From the NCBI RefSeq assembly GCF_057098645.1, contig NZ_CM169472.1: DNA of 64,000 nucleotides, one strand, 5' to 3'. Position 1 is the stretch's first letter; each line of letters opens with the position of its first letter. The position numbers and the translations under genes were made by a program. This document shows positions 1-9,745 of the stretch, in pieces. The notes beneath the pieces are model-generated. The model was given only the letters and a program-made list of their open reading frames with translations, was not told where the DNA came from and searched no databases.

Positions 1-78
1 CAGGCGGGCCAGTGACAATGCAGTTGCCGCACCGCCGATCCCGCCTCCCACAATTACTGCGCGTGTCACTTTCGTCAT
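1..78 (-). CDS. mhbM: 3-hydroxybenzoate 6-hydroxylase (FAD monooxygenase), N-terminal 26 codons only; gene runs off window start
   Basis: Reverse-strand ATG at 76-78 preceded by AGGAGAA RBS; translation MTKVTRAVIVGGGIGGAATALSLARL has FAD-binding GxGxxG; position after maleylpyruvate isomerase matches mhbRTDHIM order. Confidence 0.5.
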   Translation of the reverse strand, partial: MTKVTRAVIVGGGIGGAATALSLARL

Positions 79-92
79 TATAGTTCTCCTGG

Positions 93-740
93 TCAGGCTG
101 AAATTTTATCTTGTTGATTTTCTGGCGCTGCGGCAATGAACGCTGGCAGCTGTGTGCAGGCGTCGTACACCGCTTTGCAGCGTGGATACCCGCTCAAATC
201 GCAGTTCATGCGTAGCGCGTTTGCCCACTGCGGGACAAGGCAGCAATCTGCCAGCGTCGGCGTCTCGCCCACACAAAATTGCCCCGACTGGTTCTGGCGC
301 AACAGTTGTTCCACCGCGCTTAACCCTTGCTGGATCCAGTGCGCATACCAACGTTTTTTTTCTTCTTCACTGACGTTCAGTTCTTCGGTCAGGTAGCGCA
401 GCACGCGCAAGTTATTTAATGGATGAATATCACAAGCGATGGCATAGACAATTTCCAGCACCTTGTTGCGGGCCGGTTCTTCCTGCGGCACCAGCGGAAC
501 TTGCGGGTAGTGCCTCTCCAGCCAGTCAATAATCGCCAGCGATTGTCCGAGTGATTGGCCCTCGTCAGTCAGCAGCGTCGGCACCAGCCCGACCGGATTC
601 ATCCGCCGATAGGCCAGTTCATTTTGCTGACCAATACGGATATTCACCCCTTCGGTCTGGTAATTAATGCCTTTCAGCGCCAGCGCAATGCGTACCCGGT
701 ACGACGCTGAACTATTAAAAAAACTGTACAGCTTCATCAT
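93..740 (-). CDS. mhbI: maleylpyruvate isomerase (GST zeta-class)
   Basis: 215 aa ORF; N-terminal SSASYRVRIAL zeta-GST signature; context with gentisate dioxygenase and FAH hydrolase. Confidence 0.75.
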   Translation of the reverse strand: MMKLYSFFNSSASYRVRIALALKGINYQTEGVNIRIGQQNELAYRRMNPVGLVPTLLTDEGQSLGQSLAIIDWLERHYPQVPLVPQEEPARNKVLEIVYAIACDIHPLNNLRVLRYLTEELNVSEEEKKRWYAHWIQQGLSAVEQLLRQNQSGQFCVGETPTLADCCLVPQWANALRMNCDLSGYPRCKAVYDACTQLPAFIAAAPENQQDKISA

Positions 741-745
741 GCACC

Positions 746-1447
746 TCAGACAATCTTCACCGCGATAGGCGTTAAGCCCTCGACGTTGCCTGTGATCACA
801 TCACCTTTCACTACCGGGCCAACCCCTTCCGGCGTACCGGTGAAGATCAGATCGCCCGGTTGCAGCTCAAAGAAGCCTGACAGATAGCTGATGGTTTCAT
901 TCACCGACCAGATGAGATGGCGAATATCGCTGCGCTGATGATCTTCGCCGTTAACCTGTAACCAGATTGGCGCATTATCAATACCGCCGATATCGCGGGC
1001 TTTGTGCAGCGGCGCGATGGGCGCTGAGAGATCAAACGCTTTACCGATTTCCCACGGGCGGCCCATCTGGCGCATTTCCATTTGACGGTCACGCCGAGTC
1101 ATATCAAGACCCGTGGCATAACCCCAGACATATTCATGGGCGTGTTCCAGCGGGATATCGCTGCCTTTTTTACCAATCGCCACTACCAGTTCAATTTCGT
1201 AATGATAGTTATCGGTCTGCGCCGGATATGGCAGCGCCAGCGTTTCGCCAGCGGCGACCGGAATAACGGCATCTGCTGGTTTGCAGAAGAAGAAGGGTGG
1301 TTCACGATCCGGATCAAAGCCCATTTCGCGGGCGTGGGCGGCATAGTTACGCCCGACGCAGTAAACGCGACGCACGGGGAATTGTTTATCACTGCCAACA
1401 ACCGGTACGGTAACGGGCGCTTGTGGTTCGAATACATATTGAGTCAT
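746..1447 (-). CDS. mhbH: fumarylpyruvate hydrolase (fumarylacetoacetate hydrolase family)
   Basis: 233 aa ORF with FAH-family features ([14 protein letters not shown], metal-binding E/D cluster); 5-bp spacing to neighbours implies operon. Confidence 0.75.
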
Positions 1448-1462
1448 TTTCTCTCTCCCAAA

Positions 1463-2491
1463 TTAATAACGCGCTTCGCGGAAAAGCCCCAGGGCTTCTT
1501 GTACCGGTCTGTCCGAAAAACTGAATAAAACGGTATCTTGCGTAGTCTGGAATGACACGCCGTGCCAGGTCGGCACCACAAAGATATCTTTTGCACTAAA
1601 GGTGAAGATTTCATTGCCGATGGTGACTTGTCCGCTACCTTCCACTACATGGTAGATAGTGCTGTCAGTGGTGCGCGCCACGCGGGAGGAGAACCCTTTC
1701 GGTAGCAGTTGCAGGAAAGCGCCCATCGACGGCATCGGATAGCCGCCGGTGACCGGGTTGACGTAGCGCATTTTGTAGCCATCCCATTCGTCGGCATCGC
1801 CCATGCGGGTTAAATCGTGCAGCACTTCGCGGCTGCGGTCATAACGATAGTTAAAGATCGGCGAGGAGTTCCCCGTCTGATGGCGCAGCGGCAACATATT
1901 GGCAGCGTAACGCGGCAGGTAATCGCCCTCTTTACGCGTTACCGGTTGTTGATCTTCCGGGTAATCTTCGGCAAAACCGCAGCCCAGAGTGTTCACTAAT
2001 GGCAGATCCAACCCATCGAGCCAGATAACCGGTTCGTCGCCAGGGTTGCCGTGATCGTGCCAGCGCCACTGCGGGGTCAGGATAAAATCGCCCTCATTCA
2101 TTGGCGTGCGTTCGCCGTCAACGGCGGTAAATGCCCCTTTGCCTTCAACAATAAAACGCAGCGCCGACTGGTTATGACGATGACTCGGTGCCACTTCGCC
2201 CGGCATGATCAGTTGCAAACCGGCATATAAAGTCGCGGTGATGGAAGACTGCCCTCGCAGCGCCGGGTTTTCCAGTACCAGCACGCGGCGCACCGCCTCT
2301 TTCGCGCCAATCAGGCTGCCGCTCTCCAGCAGCAGCGGGCGGATCTCCTGATAATTCCAGTACGCTGGCGCACAGTTAGCGTTGGGCGTTTTCGGCACCA
2401 GATGGTGCAGTGACTCCCACAGCGGGGTCAGGTTTTGCCCGGAAATATGCTGATAAAATTGTTCACGGCTATTTTGATTGTTATCAGTCAT
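1463..2491 (-). CDS. mhbD: gentisate 1,2-dioxygenase (bicupin)
   Basis: 342 aa ORF; cupin His motifs ([15 protein letters not shown]); flanked by FAH hydrolase and MFS transporter. Confidence 0.8.
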
Positions 2492-2502
2492 TGGGATGCT
2501 CC

Positions 2503-3861
2503 TTATTCGTTCACAACACCTGCGTGAGGCAGTGAGTCAGGGATAGAGGTCGACTGGCGAACCACGGTGATCAACAGGGTTAACATCACCGCACTGATCG
2601 CCGCAGGCACAGCGATAATGAAAAACAGGGTGTCGAAAGAGAAATTCATCGCCATCATCACGCCGCCAGACAGCGAGCCAACAATCGCGCCGCAGCGGCC
2701 CACGGCGTTTGACCAGCTCACGCCCGTGGCGCGACTTTGTGTTGGATAAAGTGTTGCGGTCAGCGCATTCAGCCCCACCTGCGATCCGCTGATGCCAATG
2801 CCGGTGCCGAAAATCGCCAGCGCCATCAGCCATAATCCATCCTGGCTTAAGCCAATCATCACGATGCATATAGCGCCTGTGGCATAGCTCAGCGCCAGTA
2901 CGCGGAAAGGATTGAACTTATCCATCAGCACGCCCAGCGCCAGCGCGCCCAACGTACCGCCAATCTGGAACGCGGCGGTAACCCAGGAGGCATGTTGCAG
3001 GTCGATGCCGCGATGGTTGAGCAGCGTTGGCATCCAGCTTGAGAGCAGGTAAATAATCAGCAAGCTCATAAAGAACACCACCCACAGCATCAACGTGATG
3101 GGTAACTGACGCCCCATAAACAGTTGACGAATGCTGCCTTTTGTAACGGAGGCTGATTCAATGAGATAAAACTGGGTATCGACATAACGCTCGCGGGTGA
3201 TGGCGCTGACGGTTTTCGCAATCACCGCCTGGGGTAGCTGGCGGCGCACTTGCCAGCGTGGCGATTCCGGCAGAACCACCAGCAGTGCAACAAACAGCAT
3301 CAGCGGTAATACGCCACCCAACACCAGGATCCCGTGCCAGCCAATCACCGGCACCAGCTGCGCGCTGACAATCCCGCCAACCGCCGAACCCAGGGTAAAG
3401 CCGCAAAACATCAGCGTCACCAGCGCGCCGCGGCGGCGGGCAGGCAGATATTCCGAGGTCATGGTGATGGTGTTCGGCATCGCGCCGCCCAGACCCAAGC
3501 CGGTGAGAAAGCGCAGGAAGACCAGAGTTTGCAGATCCGGAGAGAAAGCTGAGGCGAGGCTTAACGCGCCAAACAAAAAGACGCACAGCTCAATCACCCG
3601 CTTGCGACCAAAGCGATCGGACAACGGGCCACAAAGCAGTGCGCCTGCGGTTAACCCCAGCAGACCCGCGCCAAAAAGCGGGGCGAGATCGCCTGCGGTG
3701 AGTTGCCAGTGAGTGCGAATATCAGGGGCGATAAATCCGATAGCCGCGGTGTCAAAACCATCGAGCATTACCACCAGAAAACAGCAGATGATAACGCGCC
3801 ACTGCATCTTGCCGACCGGAGCAGCATCGATAAGTGCTTGTAGATCACGTCGTTGAGTCAT
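2503..3861 (-). CDS. mhbT: MFS aromatic acid (3-hydroxybenzoate/gentisate) transporter
   Basis: 452 aa, multiple TM segments, MFS motif [12 protein letters not shown]; first gene of minus-strand catabolic operon. Confidence 0.75.
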
Positions 3862-3987
3862 AGTAAATGCCTCAGTGCAGGTAAGGTAGATGTTTCTTTT
3901 GTTTTGTATATGTTGCGATATTGTGATTAAAGAGATGAAATGTACAATGGCATTTCGGGCAGAGAGATAACCTGGAGGTTATGGTAA
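3862..3987. promoter_or_regulatory. divergent mhbR / mhbT control region with candidate LysR-type operator (ATTGTGA-N14-TGTACAAT, approx 3920-3950)
   Basis: 126-bp AT-rich spacer between divergently transcribed LysR gene and operon; imperfect inverted repeat of T-N11-A type seen by eye. Confidence 0.35.
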
Positions 3988-4896
3988 ATGGCGAACTGGG
4001 CGCAAAAATTAAAACTACATCACCTTGAAATGCTGGTGGCGTTGGGTGAACAGGGCAATCTGACCCATGTCGCACGAATGATGAATATCACCCAACCTGC
4101 GCTTTCGAAATGGTTGTCACAACTCGAAGATGAGATTGGAATCACACTTTTTGAGCGGCACAGCAAAGGATTACGTCCGACTGAAGGCGGCAAATTGTTA
4201 TTGCAACATGCCCAACGGTTAATCAATGACATGGAGCGATCGCAACATGAACTGGCCCGTTTTAAACAAGGTGGACTGGTCGGCAGTCTGAAAATTGGCT
4301 GTTCTCCCGTCGCCACTGACTGCGTATCCCAGGCGATTTTGCATTTGCTTACGAAGATGCCAACTCTACACCTGAATATCGAAGAGAAGGTGATGACCCC
4401 ATTGCTGCAAGATCTGTTGGCAGGTTCTGTCGACGTGGTCGTTGGGCGAATTGGCGGTCGCGCCTTGCAACTGCCACTGAATTATCAGGTGCTGTACACC
4501 GAGCCAGTATGCTTTGTCGCCAGCCCTGAGCACCCACTGGCGAAATACGCCACCCTCAGTTGGAATGATCTTGCCAACTGGCGCTGGATCGTCTGGCCGA
4601 CGGGTACCCCCATTCGCATTAGTATTGATAATGCGCTGGTAGACCACGGCGTAATGCTGCCAGAAAACACGATTGAGTCGGCGTCGATGAACGTCAGTAC
4701 CAACCTGTTACAAAGCAGCGATATGATCTCTATTTTGTCATTACGCCTGGCGCAACGTTATGCCAGCCAGGGACAACTGGTGATACTCAACCTGCCAAAG
4801 ATAGAACAGAAAGGCAGCGTCGGTGTGTTCTGGCGCAATAACGAAACGCCTTCTTATGCTTTAAGTCAGTTTCTGCACTTTTTACAGCAGAATTAG
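3988..4896 (+). CDS. mhbR: LysR-family transcriptional regulator of the gentisate operon
   Basis: 302 aa; N-terminal HTH (LTHVARMMNITQPALSKWLSQLE) typical of LysR; divergent from catabolic operon. Confidence 0.8.
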   Translation: MANWAQKLKLHHLEMLVALGEQGNLTHVARMMNITQPALSKWLSQLEDEIGITLFERHSKGLRPTEGGKLLLQHAQRLINDMERSQHELARFKQGGLVGSLKIGCSPVATDCVSQAILHLLTKMPTLHLNIEEKVMTPLLQDLLAGSVDVVVGRIGGRALQLPLNYQVLYTEPVCFVASPEHPLAKYATLSWNDLANWRWIVWPTGTPIRISIDNALVDHGVMLPENTIESASMNVSTNLLQSSDMISILSLRLAQRYASQGQLVILNLPKIEQKGSVGVFWRNNETPSYALSQFLHFLQQN

Positions 4897-5149
4897 TGTG
4901 CTGAACTGGGCATTCGCACGATGTTACTTCCCTGTAATTCAACGATGCGTAATTTTTCGGGGAATCGTGCACTGTGATAAGGCGTGATCTTTCATGGGGT
5001 GAAAATCCCACCAGGTGACTGTCGTTCCAGCCGGTAGCAGTCAAAGCAGTCGTGTGGGTAACAAAGCGGCTGATGTATTTGATGAAGAAGCTGTAGGTGT
5101 TTCAGTGAGTATACAGGTCATAATGTGAGTGAATCTGAGCAGGCCTCGA

Positions 5150-5930
5150 AAGAACCAATTGGAAGGACAACCCATTAGGAATTCCCAGAAAACAAGACAG
5201 GCATAGTGAGATGTGATCTAATTGATTGTGCTAGCAATTTCAAGGATATCACCACTATGCCTGCACGTTCATTATGCCAAAAATTCCTTAAAAACATACT
5301 GGCCACTTTGCATTTCTACCATCAAAAATCACTGATTGACGCAACAAATGCTGTAATAAATGGCGCTTCCCTCACGCTTAGCAGCATCGGGCGTCATTTA
5401 ACCAGACAGCATTAGTTAAAAACAAGATAAAGCGGGTGGATTGACCGTTGGGGAATTCTCAACTGAAAAATGATCTTCCCACCATTTTTCAGTTGGTTAC
5501 TCAAAAAAATACGCTGAGAATGTTCGTGTTGTTGTACGCCTTCGCCAGCAGTGGCAGGATGTTCAGGAGGAGTGTCGGCAGGCAGAGGTCGGATCAGGAG
5601 AGCGGCTGCGTAATGCCCTGCTGAATGTGGATTATACCACCAGTTTTGAACTGCCTTTTCGTCTGCTTTTAACCCGCACGTCACAGCTGATTGCTGTGCT
5701 TTGGGAAGAATGGGATATCAGCCAGAAAAATGTGGTGTTTAACGATAAACGCTTTGGTTGCGTGTATAGCCTGAAGGCCAGTCTTTCCGGCGTGCGGATA
5801 CATTCCGGTATCATCTGTCTCACCGTATTCGCCGGATGGTTGGGAATGAAATACATCATCGCCTTGGCAGCAGATTGCCCGGAAAGTGAAAGCGCTCCGT
5901 GAATGACTTAAGTATGCGCTAGAGGAGGGA
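5150..5930 (+). mobile_element. degenerate IS4-family (IS10-like) transposase remnant, frameshifted and 3'-truncated
   Basis: Short ORFs 5206-5415 and 5627-5902 carry IS10-like N-terminal motifs (ASLTLSSIGRHL cf. IS10 TLTLTELGRNL; IAVLWEEWDISQK cf. IVLVDWSDIREQK); boundaries approximate. Confidence 0.4.
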
Positions 5931-6082
5931 TTACTGGTGACCGCACTGGACGGTCTGTTCTGGTCTGGTAGTCAGCGTATTGCGGAAGATATTCTGTGTC
6001 GTTACGGGGAAGTCATCTTCACAGGGATCTTCAGTCAGTTAGTATTACCGACATTCATTCACCAACTTACCGGAGATAATCG

Positions 6083-6412
6083 ATGTCAAAACCCCGATGG
6101 ACCATTGAACAGAAAAGGCAGCACGTTGCTGCCTGGCGCGCCAGTGGTCTTACACGTCAGCAATACTGTGAACTCAACGATATTCCCTTCACATCACTTC
6201 GCGAATGGCCGCAGGATGTCGCAAAAGCTGAACGCCGGGCAAATGAACCGACCGTTCTTCCCGTTCATATTGCGCCACCACTGCATGCTGATGTACCACA
6301 GCCCGTCACGAATGAGCCAGTCACGCTCTTCCTTCCCGGCGGAGTACGGATGTGCTGTCAGCCGTCACAACTTACCGATGTCTTCAGGGCGCTCAAATAT
6401 GCTCAGTCCTGA
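6083..6412 (+). CDS. IS66-family accessory protein TnpA (orf1)
   Basis: 109 aa, HTH-like (WTIEQKRQHVAAWRASGLTRQQYCELNDI); stop overlaps tnpB start. Confidence 0.65.
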   Translation: MSKPRWTIEQKRQHVAAWRASGLTRQQYCELNDIPFTSLREWPQDVAKAERRANEPTVLPVHIAPPLHADVPQPVTNEPVTLFLPGGVRMCCQPSQLTDVFRALKYAQS

Positions 6413-6791
6413 TAATGTCTTCATCGCGATTAAACCTGTTGACATGCGCCGGGGCATCGACACACTGACGCAGTATATACAGGATGAACTCCGGTCGACA
6501 TGGCATGAGGGAGCCGCCTTCGTCTTTGTTAACAAAGACCGTTCGCGTATCAAAGTTCTCCGGTGGGATAAACACGGGGTGTGGTTGTGTACCCGCCGTC
6601 TTCACAAAGGCAGCTTCCGCTGGCCACGTGCAAATGATGCTGCCTGGCACCTCACTCCCGACGAGTTTAACTGGCTGATTGCCGGTGTTGACTGGCAGCA
6701 GGTTAAGGGACATGGCCTGACGAAATGGGTCTGGCAAAATGAACCTGAACTGCGCCCTGAAAACACGCAAAACACACTGCTAACTCACTGA
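6399..6791 (+). CDS. IS66-family TnpB (orf2)
   Basis: In-frame ATG at 6399 within track ORF 5937-6791; sequence MLSPDNVFIAIKPVDMRRGIDTL... resembles IS66 orf2. Confidence 0.6.
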   Translation: MLSPDNVFIAIKPVDMRRGIDTLTQYIQDELRSTWHEGAAFVFVNKDRSRIKVLRWDKHGVWLCTRRLHKGSFRWPRANDAAWHLTPDEFNWLIAGVDWQQVKGHGLTKWVWQNEPELRPENTQNTLLTH

Positions 6792-6797
6792 AAAATA

Positions 6798-7845
6798 ATG
6801 AATATTCGTATCCGGAGTGGTATGCTCCCCTGTATGGATATCTCCGCTCTCAACACCACGAATGACATCGAAAAACTGCGTGCTATGGCACTTGCCATGG
6901 TACAAAAAGTCATGTCGGAGAATGCCGAAAAAGAGCGGGAATTACTGGAGAAAAGCCGGCGCATCCAGCTTCTGGAAGAAATGCTGAAACTGGTTCGTCA
7001 ACAGCGCTTCGGTAAAAAATGTGAAACGCTGGCTGGTATGCAACGCTCCCTGTTCGAAGAGGATGTTGATGTCGATATCGCCGAGCTCACCGCACATCTG
7101 GATAAACTGCTCCCGCAATCCCCTGAAGAAGACGAAAAAGCGTCCCGTTCACGCCCGATACGCAAACCCTTACCGGCTCATCTTCCACGGGTGGAAAAAA
7201 TTATCCAGCCGGACACTGACCATTGCCCTGAATGTGACGAGCCGCTGCACTATATCCGTGATGCGGTGAGTGAAAAGCTGGAGTATATTCCCGCTCACTT
7301 TGTGGTGAACTGTTATGTCCGTCCGCAATACAGTTGTCCCTGTTGCCAGAAGGTGTTCAGCGGTGAAATGCCGGCACATATCCTCCCGAAAAGTGCCGTT
7401 GAGCCATCAGTCATCGCACAGGTGATCATCAATAAATACGGTGAGCACCTGCCTCTGTATCGCCAGCAACAGGTCTTTGCCCGTTCAGATGTCGGACTGC
7501 CCGTCAGTTCGATGGCTGACATGGTTGGCGCGGCAGGGGCCGCATTATCCCCCCTCGCGGCGTTACTCCATCGCGAATTGATAAGCCGTCCGGTGGTGCA
7601 TGCAGATGAGACTACCCTGAAGATCCTGAACACGAAGAAAGGCGGTAAATCCTGCTCCGGTTATCTGTGGGCATACGTCAGTGGAGAAAGGACGGGACCG
7701 TCAGTTGTGTGCTTCGACTGCCGGACCGGACGTAGCCATGAGTATCCTGAAAACTGGCTTCAGGGCTGGGGCGGGACGCTGGTTGTCGACGGACATAAAG
7801 CTTACCGGACTCTGGCAAACAAAGTGCCGGAGCTGGCGAATATCA
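6798..7845 (+). pseudogene. IS66-family transposase TnpC, C-terminally truncated (about 350 of about 520 aa)
   Basis: Coiled-coil N-term, zinc finger CPECDE...CPCCQ, DDE motifs; homology ends after LVVDGHKAYRTLANKVPEL where a Gly/Ala-rich PT-VENN-like sequence begins. Confidence 0.6.
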
Positions 7846-8441
7846 TCGGTCATCACGCGGGTATTGATGACAATACAGCGGCAAAAGCCATTGCCCATGC
7901 CATTCTCGGTGGTGTGACAGCAGCCCTTCAGGGCAACAGTGCGGCAGCAGGCGCAATTGGTGCGGGTACTGGTGAAGTGATCTCGTCAGCCATTGCGAAA
8001 AGCCTCTACCCGGACGTAGATCCGTCGAAACTGACAGAAGATCAGAAGCAAACCGTAAGCACGCTGGCAACGCTGTCAGCGGGTATGGCTGGCGGCATTG
8101 CCAGTGGCGATGTGGCTGGCACAGCTGCAGGGGCTGGTGTTGGGAAGAACATTGCTGAGAATAACTTGGTTGGTGGCACAGAGTCCGAGCAGAGCAAAGC
8201 TGCTCAGACGCATGGCGCAGATGTACTTTCCTGTAACGATGCTCCAGGCGGTGAAGCCTGTAAGCGAGGAGAAGCAGTCAATAAAGCGTATGCCGGAGCG
8301 TTGGCCACTGGTAGTGTAGCTCTCTTACCTGGCGGTGCTCAGGCCATGTGGGCTCTTGGCACAGGTGCAAATGCAGGAATTGGTTACATGGTAGATAGTT
8401 CAGTTGATCCTGAAAATGCAATCATTGCAGGATGGGTCTGA
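7846..8441 (+). pseudogene. orphan CdiA-CT-like toxin fragment: pretoxin PT-VENN-like region (AENN) plus about 90 aa of CT N-terminal region, cut by IS629
   Basis: KLTEDQKQTVSTLATLSAGMAGGIASGDVAGTAAGAGVGKNIAENN resembles CdiA pretoxin region ending in VENN-type motif; two Cys after motif; reading frame ends at TGA that is first triplet of IS629 IR. Confidence 0.5.
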
Positions 8442-8480
8442 ACCGCCCCGGGTTTCCTGGAGAGTGTTTTATCTGTGAAC

Positions 8481-9371
8481 TCAGGCTGCCAGATCATCGT
8501 TTCCGATGGAAGCATAATAAGCTTTTTCTGCTTCTGCCGGAGGAGTATGGCCCAGCCTTTCCAGCAATCGTCGATTGTTATACCAGTCCACCCACGTGAG
8601 TGTGGCCAGTTCCACTTCTGCACGGTTTTTCCAGCTCTTACGGTGTATTACCTCCGCTTTGTAAAGACCATTGATGCTCTCCGCCATCGCGTTGTCATAC
8701 GAGTCGCCTGTACTTCCTGTTGATGCCAGTAATCCGGCTTCCTTAAGCCGCTGTGTGTAGGCCAGCGATACATACTGAGAACCTTTATCACTGTGATGGA
8801 CCGTGCCGGACGGTCGACGGGCCCATAACGCCTGCTCCAGTGCATCCAGCACGAATGTCGTCTCCATGGACGATGAGACCCGCCACCCCACAATGTATCC
8901 GGCAAACACATCAATGATGAACGCCACATAGACGAAGCCCTGCCATGTGCTGACGTAAGTAAAATCAGCCACCCACAGCTGGTCAGGTCGTTCTGCCACG
9001 AACTGACGGTTTACGCGGTCGCCTGCGGCAACGGCTTTCCGGCTGATGGTCGTACGGACCTTTTTACCCCGGAGAACACCGGCAAGTCCCATAACCGCCA
9101 TGAGACGTGCCACAGTGCATCTGGCCACTCTGATACCTTCCCGTAACAACTGACGCCAGACTTTACGCACACCGTATACCTTGTGATTTTCATCGTATAC
9201 GCGCTGTATCTCTTTCTTCAGCCAGTCATCGCGCTGCGCACGGGCACTGCGTTTATCCGGATGATGTCGCTGTTGCTGACAGTGGTAATACGTTGACGGG
9301 GCAATATGCAGTTCGCTGCATAGCGGTCCGACCCCGTACTGCTCACGCAGCTTATCCAGCAGTGGCATCAT
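8481..9371 (-). CDS. IS629 transposase OrfB (DDE integrase domain)
   Basis: 296 aa with DDE motifs ([25 protein letters not shown]); start overlaps orfA stop; expressed as OrfAB by -1 frameshift. Confidence 0.85.
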
Positions 9372-9694
9372 TTTTTCCAGAGGCGGTCGAACTCCGCCTT
9401 CGCAAAATAAGCGGAAGCCTGGCGAAGGATATCGTTACTGCGGCGCAGTTCACGATTTTCACGCTCCAGCTCTTTCAGACGCTGACGTTCAGCGGTGGTG
9501 AGCCCTCCATCACCGCCCCCGGTATCCCGCTCATGCTGGCGAACCCAGACACGCAGAGTCTCCGGCGTACAGCCAATCTTTGGAGCAATGGAACAAATTG
9601 TCGCCCATTGTGAGTCATATTCGCCCTGACTTTCCAGAACCATACGGACTGCCCGTTGACGGACTTCAGGGGAAAAACGAGTATTTTTAGTCAT
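9368..9694 (-). CDS. IS629 OrfA (HTH / leucine zipper)
   Basis: 108 aa [19 protein letters not shown]...; A6 slippery run (minus-strand GGAAAAAATGATG, approx 9366-9380) at orfA/orfB overlap. Confidence 0.85.
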
Positions 9695-9745
9695 CCTGTT
9701 TACCTCTTTCTCAGGAAGTTTAGTCTCCAGGATTCCCGGGGCGGT

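Follow-up and report, generated by a model that had tools for sequence, protein, structure and literature searches.

A probable orphan cdiA-CT remnant of the group 6 ionophore type, fused in frame to a truncated IS66-family transposase gene and cut short by IS629 in Escherichia coli

A 64,000-nucleotide stretch of Escherichia coli DNA (NCBI RefSeq assembly GCF_057098645.1, contig NZ_CM169472.1), referred to below as the window, contains an open reading frame (ORF) that starts as tnpC, the transposase gene of the IS66-family insertion sequence (IS) ISEc49, and ends as a piece of cdiA, a gene of contact-dependent inhibition (CDI) systems. The frame encodes 547 amino acids from its first ATG, or 535 from the RefSeq-style start at 6834, as read from the ORF list and the raw sequence. 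With 97.1% identity to cdiA over 552 nt, it is an in-frame chimera, far beyond what chance would produce. The exact protein is found on 12 public E. coli contigs, eight times as the 547-residue and four times as the 535-residue form, and its public annotation is "IS66 family transposase".

Domain models divide the protein into two parts. Pfam finds LZ_Tnp_IS66 at residues 59-133, zf-IS66 at 141-183, and DDE_Tnp_IS66 at 199-341, the last covering model positions 2-143 of 284 only (E 3.4e-39). NCBIfam model transpos_IS66 is matched over profile positions 3-221 of 387. The catalytic DDE domain is thus incomplete, only 333 of the 521 tnpC codons having been kept. Further along, the tail of DUF637 (the last 44 positions of the model) aligns to residues 345-389, and the full PT-VENN domain (PF04829) to residues 409-457, with an E value of 1.5e-12. 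An initial annotation, made from the letters of the region alone, had seen a likeness to the PT-VENN pretoxin domain in a segment ending in KNIAENN, and the Pfam match bears this out. The motif reads GKNIAENN, with ENN at residues 454-456 (nt 8157-8165), and it is followed by 91 residues that include Cys479 (nt 8232-8234) and Cys488 (nt 8259-8261). The stop codon, TGA at 8439-8441, is the opening triplet of the IS629 terminal repeat TGAACCGCCCCGGG, just as had been proposed. Table 1 collects the features of the locus.

Table 1. Features in and around the chimeric ORF, in window coordinates
Feature	Position	Strand	Basis or remark
ISEc49 (IS66-family) tnpA, intact	6083..6412	+	collinear at 99.99% with E. 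coli 2015C-3163, there tnpA WP_000042910.1
ISEc49 tnpB, intact	6399..6791	+	collinear with E. coli 2015C-3163, there tnpB WP_000950651.1
Chimeric ORF, 547 aa from first ATG	6798..8441	+	TnpC(1-333)::CdiA pretoxin::truncated CdiA-CT; stop from IS629
ISEc49 tnpC, 5' 999 nt (333 of 521 codons)	6834..7832	+	alignment to intact ISEc49 tnpC
Fusion junction, 7-nt microhomology GCCGGAG common to ISEc49 tnpC and cdiA	7826..7832	+	
cdiA pretoxin region: DUF637 tail and PT-VENN, ending AENN (8154-8165)	7826..8165	+	Pfam; nucleotide identity
Truncated CdiA-CT, 91 of 220 residues	8166..8438	+	100% identical to first 91 CT residues of the 664-aa protein
IS629/IS1203-type IS3-family element, 1310 bp, complete inverted repeats	8439..9748	-	orfA and orfB present
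Winged-helix regulator gene, 5' 136 of 201 codons	9746..10156	-	truncated by the other IS629 end; adjoins glcA

The fusion junction was placed by a three-way alignment of the window, ISEc49 and cdiA of E. coli strain SCU-101. Homology to ISEc49 tnpC ends at 7832; up to that position the window is 98% identical to the intact gene, and past it there is no relatedness. Homology to cdiA starts at 7826. The initial annotation was right that TnpC homology gives way to other sequence within one continuous frame. It had set the boundary at about 7845, and this needs correction to 7826-7832, the cdiA part beginning about 14-20 nt to the left of 7846, where it had been thought to start. On the transposon side, tnpA, tnpB and the first 333 tnpC codons are 98% identical to intact ISEc49, and the leucine zipper, zinc finger and initial half of the DDE domain are retained. 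ISEc49 proper differs in having two IS ends and a further 188 tnpC codons, encoding the second half of the DDE domain; here 567 nt at the 3' end of tnpC have been lost together with the right IS end. This copy should be immobile, because the distal part of tnpC and the right end have been replaced by cdiA sequence.

The 596-nt segment of the initial annotation (7846-8441) matches cdiA genes or fragments named "VENN motif pre-toxin" in 317 of 5,426 complete E. coli genomes, and the pretoxin region shows 96-97% nucleotide identity to cdiA genes. The closest full-length gene is cdiA of SCU-101 (WP_169711454.1, 3254 aa), part of an ordinary cdiB-cdiA-cdiI locus; over the 552 nt of window 7826-8377 the identity is 97.1%. 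At the protein level the chimera is 93.6% identical to residues 2926-3129 of the 3254 in SCU-101 CdiA. The window thus holds cdiA-derived pretoxin sequence upstream of a toxin part, with the usual (V/A)ENN demarcation in the form AENN. Over its final 61 nt the stub departs from SCU-101 and matches another allele, an orphan in strain CFIAFB20190157. No complete toxin domain follows the VENN-type motif, 91 of 220 residues being left before IS629. Searches of the 64-kb window by tblastn with three immunity proteins (the 72-residue CdiI described below, SCU-101 CdiI and CdiI-o11) found no cdiI, which agrees with the initial statement that no immunity gene follows, and tblastn likewise found neither cdiB nor a further cdiA in the window; the module is not linked to a cdiBAI locus here. 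A search for an intact parent with its cdiI, which had been suggested at the outset, succeeded twice, in the cdiBAI-type locus of SCU-101 and in E. coli 2015C-3163.

Strain 2015C-3163 is 99.99% identical to window positions 1-8438, and there the chimeric ORF runs on for another 117 codons. The resulting 664-residue protein (WP_000354992.1) is again named "IS66 family transposase". Its stop codon overlaps the start (ATGA; AAATGATC) of a very hydrophobic 72-residue ORF, WP_000611256.1, annotated "hypothetical protein", with hydropathy peaks at about residues 9-30 and 54-63. A frameshifted CT-o11 fragment, cdiI-o11, IS remnants and efa1/lifA lie 3' of it. No cdiBA was found near this module between ISEc49 and efa1/lifA, and the pretoxin probe hit only one site in the 2015C-3163 genome. 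The 664-residue form occurs on about 350 public contigs, the 72-residue cdiI on at least 1000. The fusion of ISEc49 to cdiA-CT is therefore old and common, and by itself it left toxin and immunity gene intact. The initial annotation had pictured a CDI module destroyed by two IS events. The cdiA homology upholds the remnant; the first event was instead a join at microhomology, which the module survived in many strains.

The parent CT, meaning the 220 residues that follow ENN in the uninterrupted form, is rich in Gly and Trp, hydrophobic, and carries overlapping GxxxGxxxG motifs, all at residues 138-158 when numbered from GKNIAENN. Neither it nor the 72-residue CdiI matches a family in Pfam or NCBIfam, and a phmmer comparison of the CT with PDB sequences gave nothing meaningful (best E 0.82). 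Strings of the CT sequence were not found in the text supplements of the study that defined the CDI ionophores (Halvorsen 2024, PMC11630599), and the assignment to a group was therefore made through the accession number of SCU-101 CdiA. In CDI ionophores an N-terminal domain for membrane entry is followed by a C-terminal bundle of five helices, a glycine zipper being the sole motif they share; their CdiI proteins have 72-100 residues and two helices, and contact toxin helices 1, 4 and 5 (PMC11630599). Toxins of group 6 depolarise membranes, and their inner-membrane receptors are the di/tripeptide permeases DtpA and DtpB (PMC11630599). In the PSI-BLAST list of S1 Appendix of the same paper, obtained with a group 6 CT as query, SCU-101 CdiA (WP_169711454.1) stands within the group 6 block, flanked by named group 6 strains, with 55.7% identity, 95% coverage and an E value of 7e-71. 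The parent CT and that of SCU-101 share 73% identity, while the orphan CdiI is only 32% identical to its SCU-101 counterpart, which would make it a distinct immunity type; low CdiI identity within one group is the pattern described there (PMC11630599).

Other features agree with this placement. The parent CT resembles the group 6 ionophores CT-M15, CT-RHB08-C14-1 and CT-O91:H8 in having Leu after the VENN motif, a helical N-terminal entry region and a hydrophobic C-domain rich in glycine zippers, and its locus resembles theirs in the hydrophobic 72-residue CdiI with overlapping start. The two cysteines, which the initial annotation had likened to those of CdiA-CT entry domains, are conserved in the family: in an alignment of 39 sequences, homologues from Enterobacterales, C31 is invariant and C40 is present in at least 90%. 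Disulfide-dependent entry domains are known, according to the work cited as reference 50 of PMC11630599. The toxin is, by its predicted features, a member of the group 6 CDI ionophore family and not a nuclease. The window allele differs from the named toxins in keeping the first 91 of 220 CT residues only. The SCU-101 and orphan CTs share about 97% DNA identity as far as window position 8377, a stretch that covers the entry domain and reaches into ionophore helix 1, and diverge from there on. This looks like a recombination breakpoint inside the toxin, and would be consistent with modular exchange of ionophore and immunity specificity.

To describe what the stub retains, we used an AlphaFold2 (AF2) model of the CT built from the 39-sequence alignment. 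Its mean predicted local distance difference test score (pLDDT) is 40, and only the positions of helices were taken from it, with caution. Helices at 14-33 and 38-55 flank the Cys pair, and five more follow at 64-85, 90-102, 109-125, 130-138 and 150-164. IS629 cuts after CT residue 99, numbered from GKNIAENN. The stub is accordingly predicted by the model to keep the two-Cys entry domain and about 1.7 of the five ionophore helices, namely the first and most of the second. It has lost the glycine zipper, predicted helices 3-5, the conserved C-terminal tail (129 residues in all) and cdiI. A five-helix ionophore domain with glycine zipper and a small hydrophobic CdiI are both present in the parent and both absent from the window.

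The chimeric product should be unable to transpose, because half of the DDE domain is missing and the IS lacks its right end; unable to be exported, because it has no signal peptide, no TPS domain and no CdiB; and unable to make a pore, since the glycine zipper is missing and so are three to four of the five ionophore helices. Group 6 toxin CT-M15 is harmless in the cytosol unless its N-terminus is trimmed exactly (PMC11630599), and since exact trimming is needed, an N-terminal extension of about 450 residues should inactivate the toxin in any case. From what is known of these families, the 547-residue chimera is predicted to be a non-functional pseudogene, in line with the initial view that the ORF is probably not functional, half of the DDE domain, most of the ionophore helices and cdiI all being missing.

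The element that ends the chimeric ORF has the length of about 1310 bp, both terminal inverted repeats (TGAACCGCCCCGGG) and the frameshifted orfA/orfB pair of IS629. On the minus strand, orfA (9368-9694) encodes 108 residues and orfB (8481-9371) 296 residues. Copies in O145 genomes match it at 99.7-100% identity. No target duplication is present, the flanks being GTC and ATC, and these flanks belong to different genes, cdiA-CT on one side and the winged helix-turn-helix (wHTH) regulator gene on the other. The wHTH fragment also takes its stop codon from an IS629 terminal triplet, and the two terminal triplets of the element, TGA/TCA, serve as stop codons of the two truncated ORFs. The wHTH protein is Trans_reg_C-like. 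Genes of the flp/tad type IVb pilus stand beside it in O145:H28 RM12761 and O145:NM FWSEC0002, and are missing here. The exact 136-residue wHTH product occurs on at least 24 contigs that end in IS629. The initial annotation's second IS event is real in so far as IS629 truncates the stub; it was more than a simple insertion, given the absent target duplication and a right flank made of a different truncated gene.

Comparison with RM12761 shows what has been joined. From 9749 to 59423 the window is collinear with that genome at 99.96% (glc, hyb, exbBD, metC onward). The pheV island of RM12761 has the order tRNA-Phe, integrase, fec, and, further on, 3-hydroxybenzoate/gentisate genes, LysR, IS629, tad/flp genes, wHTH and glcA. 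Window positions 1-5250, the mhb-LysR block, match RM12761 up to LysR, and the window resumes within wHTH from 9749. In RM12761 the mhb-LysR and wHTH-glcA blocks lie about 6 kb apart in the same orientation, with IS629 and the tad genes between them; that IS629 is 100% identical to the window copy and oppositely oriented. No tRNA gene was found by ARAGORN in positions 1-64000, so the pheV attachment site must lie outside the window.

A catabolic cluster for 3-hydroxybenzoate and gentisate (3-hydroxybenzoate 6-monooxygenase, maiA, FAH, gtdA, mhbT, LysR) together with the ISEc49 block is found in two different islands of related strains: the pheV island with fec in RM12761, and an OI-122-like island with efa1/lifA, nleB and nleE in RM12581, 2015C-3163 and Z1323HEC0422. 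This duplication can mislead inference from synteny. A 1.3-Mb inversion had been considered, the flanks in Z1323HEC0422 lying 1.3 Mb apart on opposite strands, and was dropped, as in RM12761 the flanks sit 6 kb apart in one pheV island. A long-range inversion is unnecessary, because these genomes carry related mhb-ISEc49 blocks in two islands.

Taken together, these results make it very probable that the region represents a remnant, no longer functional, of an orphan cdiA-CT/cdiI module for a group 6 CDI ionophore; that it belongs to an island gained by horizontal transfer (pheV-type, OI-122-related) in E. coli resembling enterohaemorrhagic (EHEC) or atypical enteropathogenic (aEPEC) strains; and that it arose through a tnpC fusion followed by an IS629 event. 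In the first step, illegitimate recombination at GCCGGAG joined a cdiA fragment, spanning the end of DUF637 through PT-VENN and the toxin, to ISEc49 tnpC, by chance in frame. The distal 188 tnpC codons, the right IS end and all upstream cdiA were lost with it. The product was the now widespread 664-residue TnpC(1-333)::CdiA-CT ORF, overlapping at ATGA the start of the 72-residue cdiI. In the second step, for which both junctions are seen and the path is our inference, an IS629-type element came to lie after CT residue 91, where it supplies the stop codon. This may have happened by an IS629-adjacent deletion or by recombination between IS629 copies in CT and wHTH, and would have removed or, less likely, inverted away 129 CT residues, cdiI, CT-o11/cdiI-o11 and the tad genes. 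A deletion or recombination is indicated because there is no target duplication and because the other IS629 end abuts a truncated wHTH gene by glcA. An IS629-mediated local deletion is the simplest reading, and a local inversion is possible.

Several points weigh against this account or blur it. One window does not distinguish sequence that was deleted from sequence moved elsewhere in the genome, and a search for the reciprocal junction came back empty. The ancestral gene order from CT to tad is taken from strains whose islands are differently arranged. Membership in group 6 is taken from a supplementary hit list and from sequence features, not from aligning the CT directly with CT-M15 or another characterised member. 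Finally, the poor AF2 model makes "entry domain plus 1.7 helices" approximate only.

The alternative that survives best, and which we still regard as unlikely, is that an inversion between oppositely oriented IS629 copies in CT and wHTH separated the toxin half and cdiI from the stub, leaving cdiI elsewhere in the genome by a reciprocal junction. An IS629 copy with no target duplication and with flanks from two different genes is what such an event would leave. The IS629|wHTH junction is found on more contigs than the CT|IS629 junction (at least 24 against 12), which fits an older IS629 in wHTH that recombined later. Inversions have happened in this island, since the CT array in DLI.6n and FWSEC0002 faces the fec operon, opposite to the window, and the opposite-strand flanks of Z1323HEC0422 point the same way. 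Yet a reciprocal junction, with IS629 followed by the CT remainder, predicts ORFs of 161 and 160 residues, and both are absent from a collection of 15 billion proteins; the 125- and 143-residue ORF calls found there instead derive from IS629 junctions at other positions. The window contains no cdiI, and the data are also accounted for by a simple deletion between IS629 copies in direct orientation.

Very unlikely, in our judgement, is an assembly artefact in which two IS629 insertions were collapsed into one, producing the join of CT stub, IS629 and wHTH/glcA. Such an error would fit an element repeated at up to about 40-50 places per genome in these lineages, here lacking a target duplication, and neither junction of the window, taken over its full 401-nt span, occurs in any of the 5,426 complete E. 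coli genomes. Both junctions nevertheless occur independently at contig ends of other assemblies, on the 12 and at least 24 contigs mentioned above, and each junction individually is not an artefact. The flanks in RM12761, 6 kb apart with the same orientation in the same island, make a local join plausible, and IS629 copies without target duplication are common in these islands.

Less credible again is a functional chimeric ORF. It might be a toxin acting in the cytoplasm, an addiction module, or a regulator of ISEc49 derived from the truncated transposase; in the 664-residue form it might drive translation of the overlapping cdiI. Intact tnpA and tnpB precede the in-frame fusion, which supplies a start codon of the kind usually absent from orphan CTs (PMC3150448), and the longer form keeps its ATGA overlap with cdiI on about 350 contigs. 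Against this, the ionophore domain and cdiI are gone from the window, half of the DDE domain is missing, the long N-terminal extension should inactivate the toxin by analogy with the trimming of CT-M15 (PMC11630599), and the chimera has been broken five or more times independently in different lineages. That an IS66-family transposase naturally ends in residues 346-547, as the RefSeq names of the 547- and 664-residue proteins imply, or that these residues are a chance Gly/Ala-rich frame, is refuted for practical purposes by the PT-VENN match, by 97% nucleotide identity to cdiA and by the complete divergence of intact ISEc49 TnpC (521 aa), which shares nothing past 7832.

The independent disruptions of the chimera, at five or more positions, argue for decay and against selection. 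In DLI.6n an IS629 lies at tnpC nt 963; in O145:H28 RM12581 an IS3-family element lies at tnpC nt 997, with a deletion up to efa1; in Z1323HEC0422 an IS630 lies at CT nt 357. Two metagenome contigs carry IS629 junctions equivalent to window 8402/8403 and 8394/8395. Counting the junction at 8438|8439, IS629 has landed or recombined at least three times within the CT stretch 8394-8441, which may be a local hot spot for this element. The metagenome junction at 8402|8403 has a 5-nt ambiguity, GTTCA, with the IS end, and one of the metagenome IS629 copies, also lacking a target duplication, abuts a truncated fimbrial usher gene near pcnB-folK. The locus resembles known cases of IS629/IS1203 erosion in EHEC, which involve adjacent deletions and IS-IS recombination: two truncated genes are joined by a complete 1310-bp element that has no target duplication, and related strains show the same element at different sites of the same island.

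IS elements frequently interrupt orphan cdiA-CTs, most of which have no translation start (Poole et al. 2011, PMC3150448). The module resembles those described there in being a cdiA 3' fragment with some pretoxin sequence, a VENN-type motif and a polymorphic CT, and its intact relatives resemble them further in having their own cdiI followed by a second orphan module, CT-o11/cdiI-o11 of the EC869 type. It differs in its position, which is not 3' of a cdiBAI locus; the module sits isolated in a pathogenicity-type island, without a cdiB or cdiA in the vicinity. It differs also in having gained a start codon and upstream genes through the in-frame fusion to ISEc49 tnpC, and, in the window, in missing the C-terminal half of the toxin as well as cdiI.

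As a decaying gene remnant the window copy carries little biological weight; it exemplifies ordinary genome decay and is no new system. The locus does record the stepwise erosion by IS629 of a pheV/OI-122-type island, and could serve as a lineage marker in O145:H28-like strains. The consequences for annotation are broader. On hundreds of contigs, the name "IS66 family transposase" is given to a cluster of 428 proteins whose 664-residue form includes an entire CDI ionophore toxin. Anyone cataloguing the toxins and immunity genes of EHEC and aEPEC will overlook this toxin, and with it the cdiI annotated as a "hypothetical protein". As the example of 2015C-3163 illustrates, the names given to the 664-residue chimera and its cdiI conceal a full ionophore toxin/immunity pair, and hundreds of EHEC/aEPEC assemblies are affected.

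For the 664-residue form one may speculate that the IS would supply a promoter and translation start, so that ribosomes reaching ATGA would drive the orphan cdiI and protect strains without cdiBA against neighbours that deploy group 6 ionophores, the long N-terminal extension keeping the toxin harmless. If so, the window would show the loss of such IS-driven immunity through IS629. We think it a long shot. Expression of cdiI in this way is unlikely, and the idea is inapplicable to the window itself, where cdiI is absent.

The sequence just 5' of ISEc49 tnpA has an IS history of its own. By collinearity with 2015C-3163, window positions 5257-5996 hold a frameshifted fragment of an ISEc60 (IS4-like) transposase gene and a pseudogene of the "ECs1377 family/DNA-binding protein" type. 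In RM12761 an IS629 lies exactly at the left edge of this stretch, at the equivalent of window 5250|5251.

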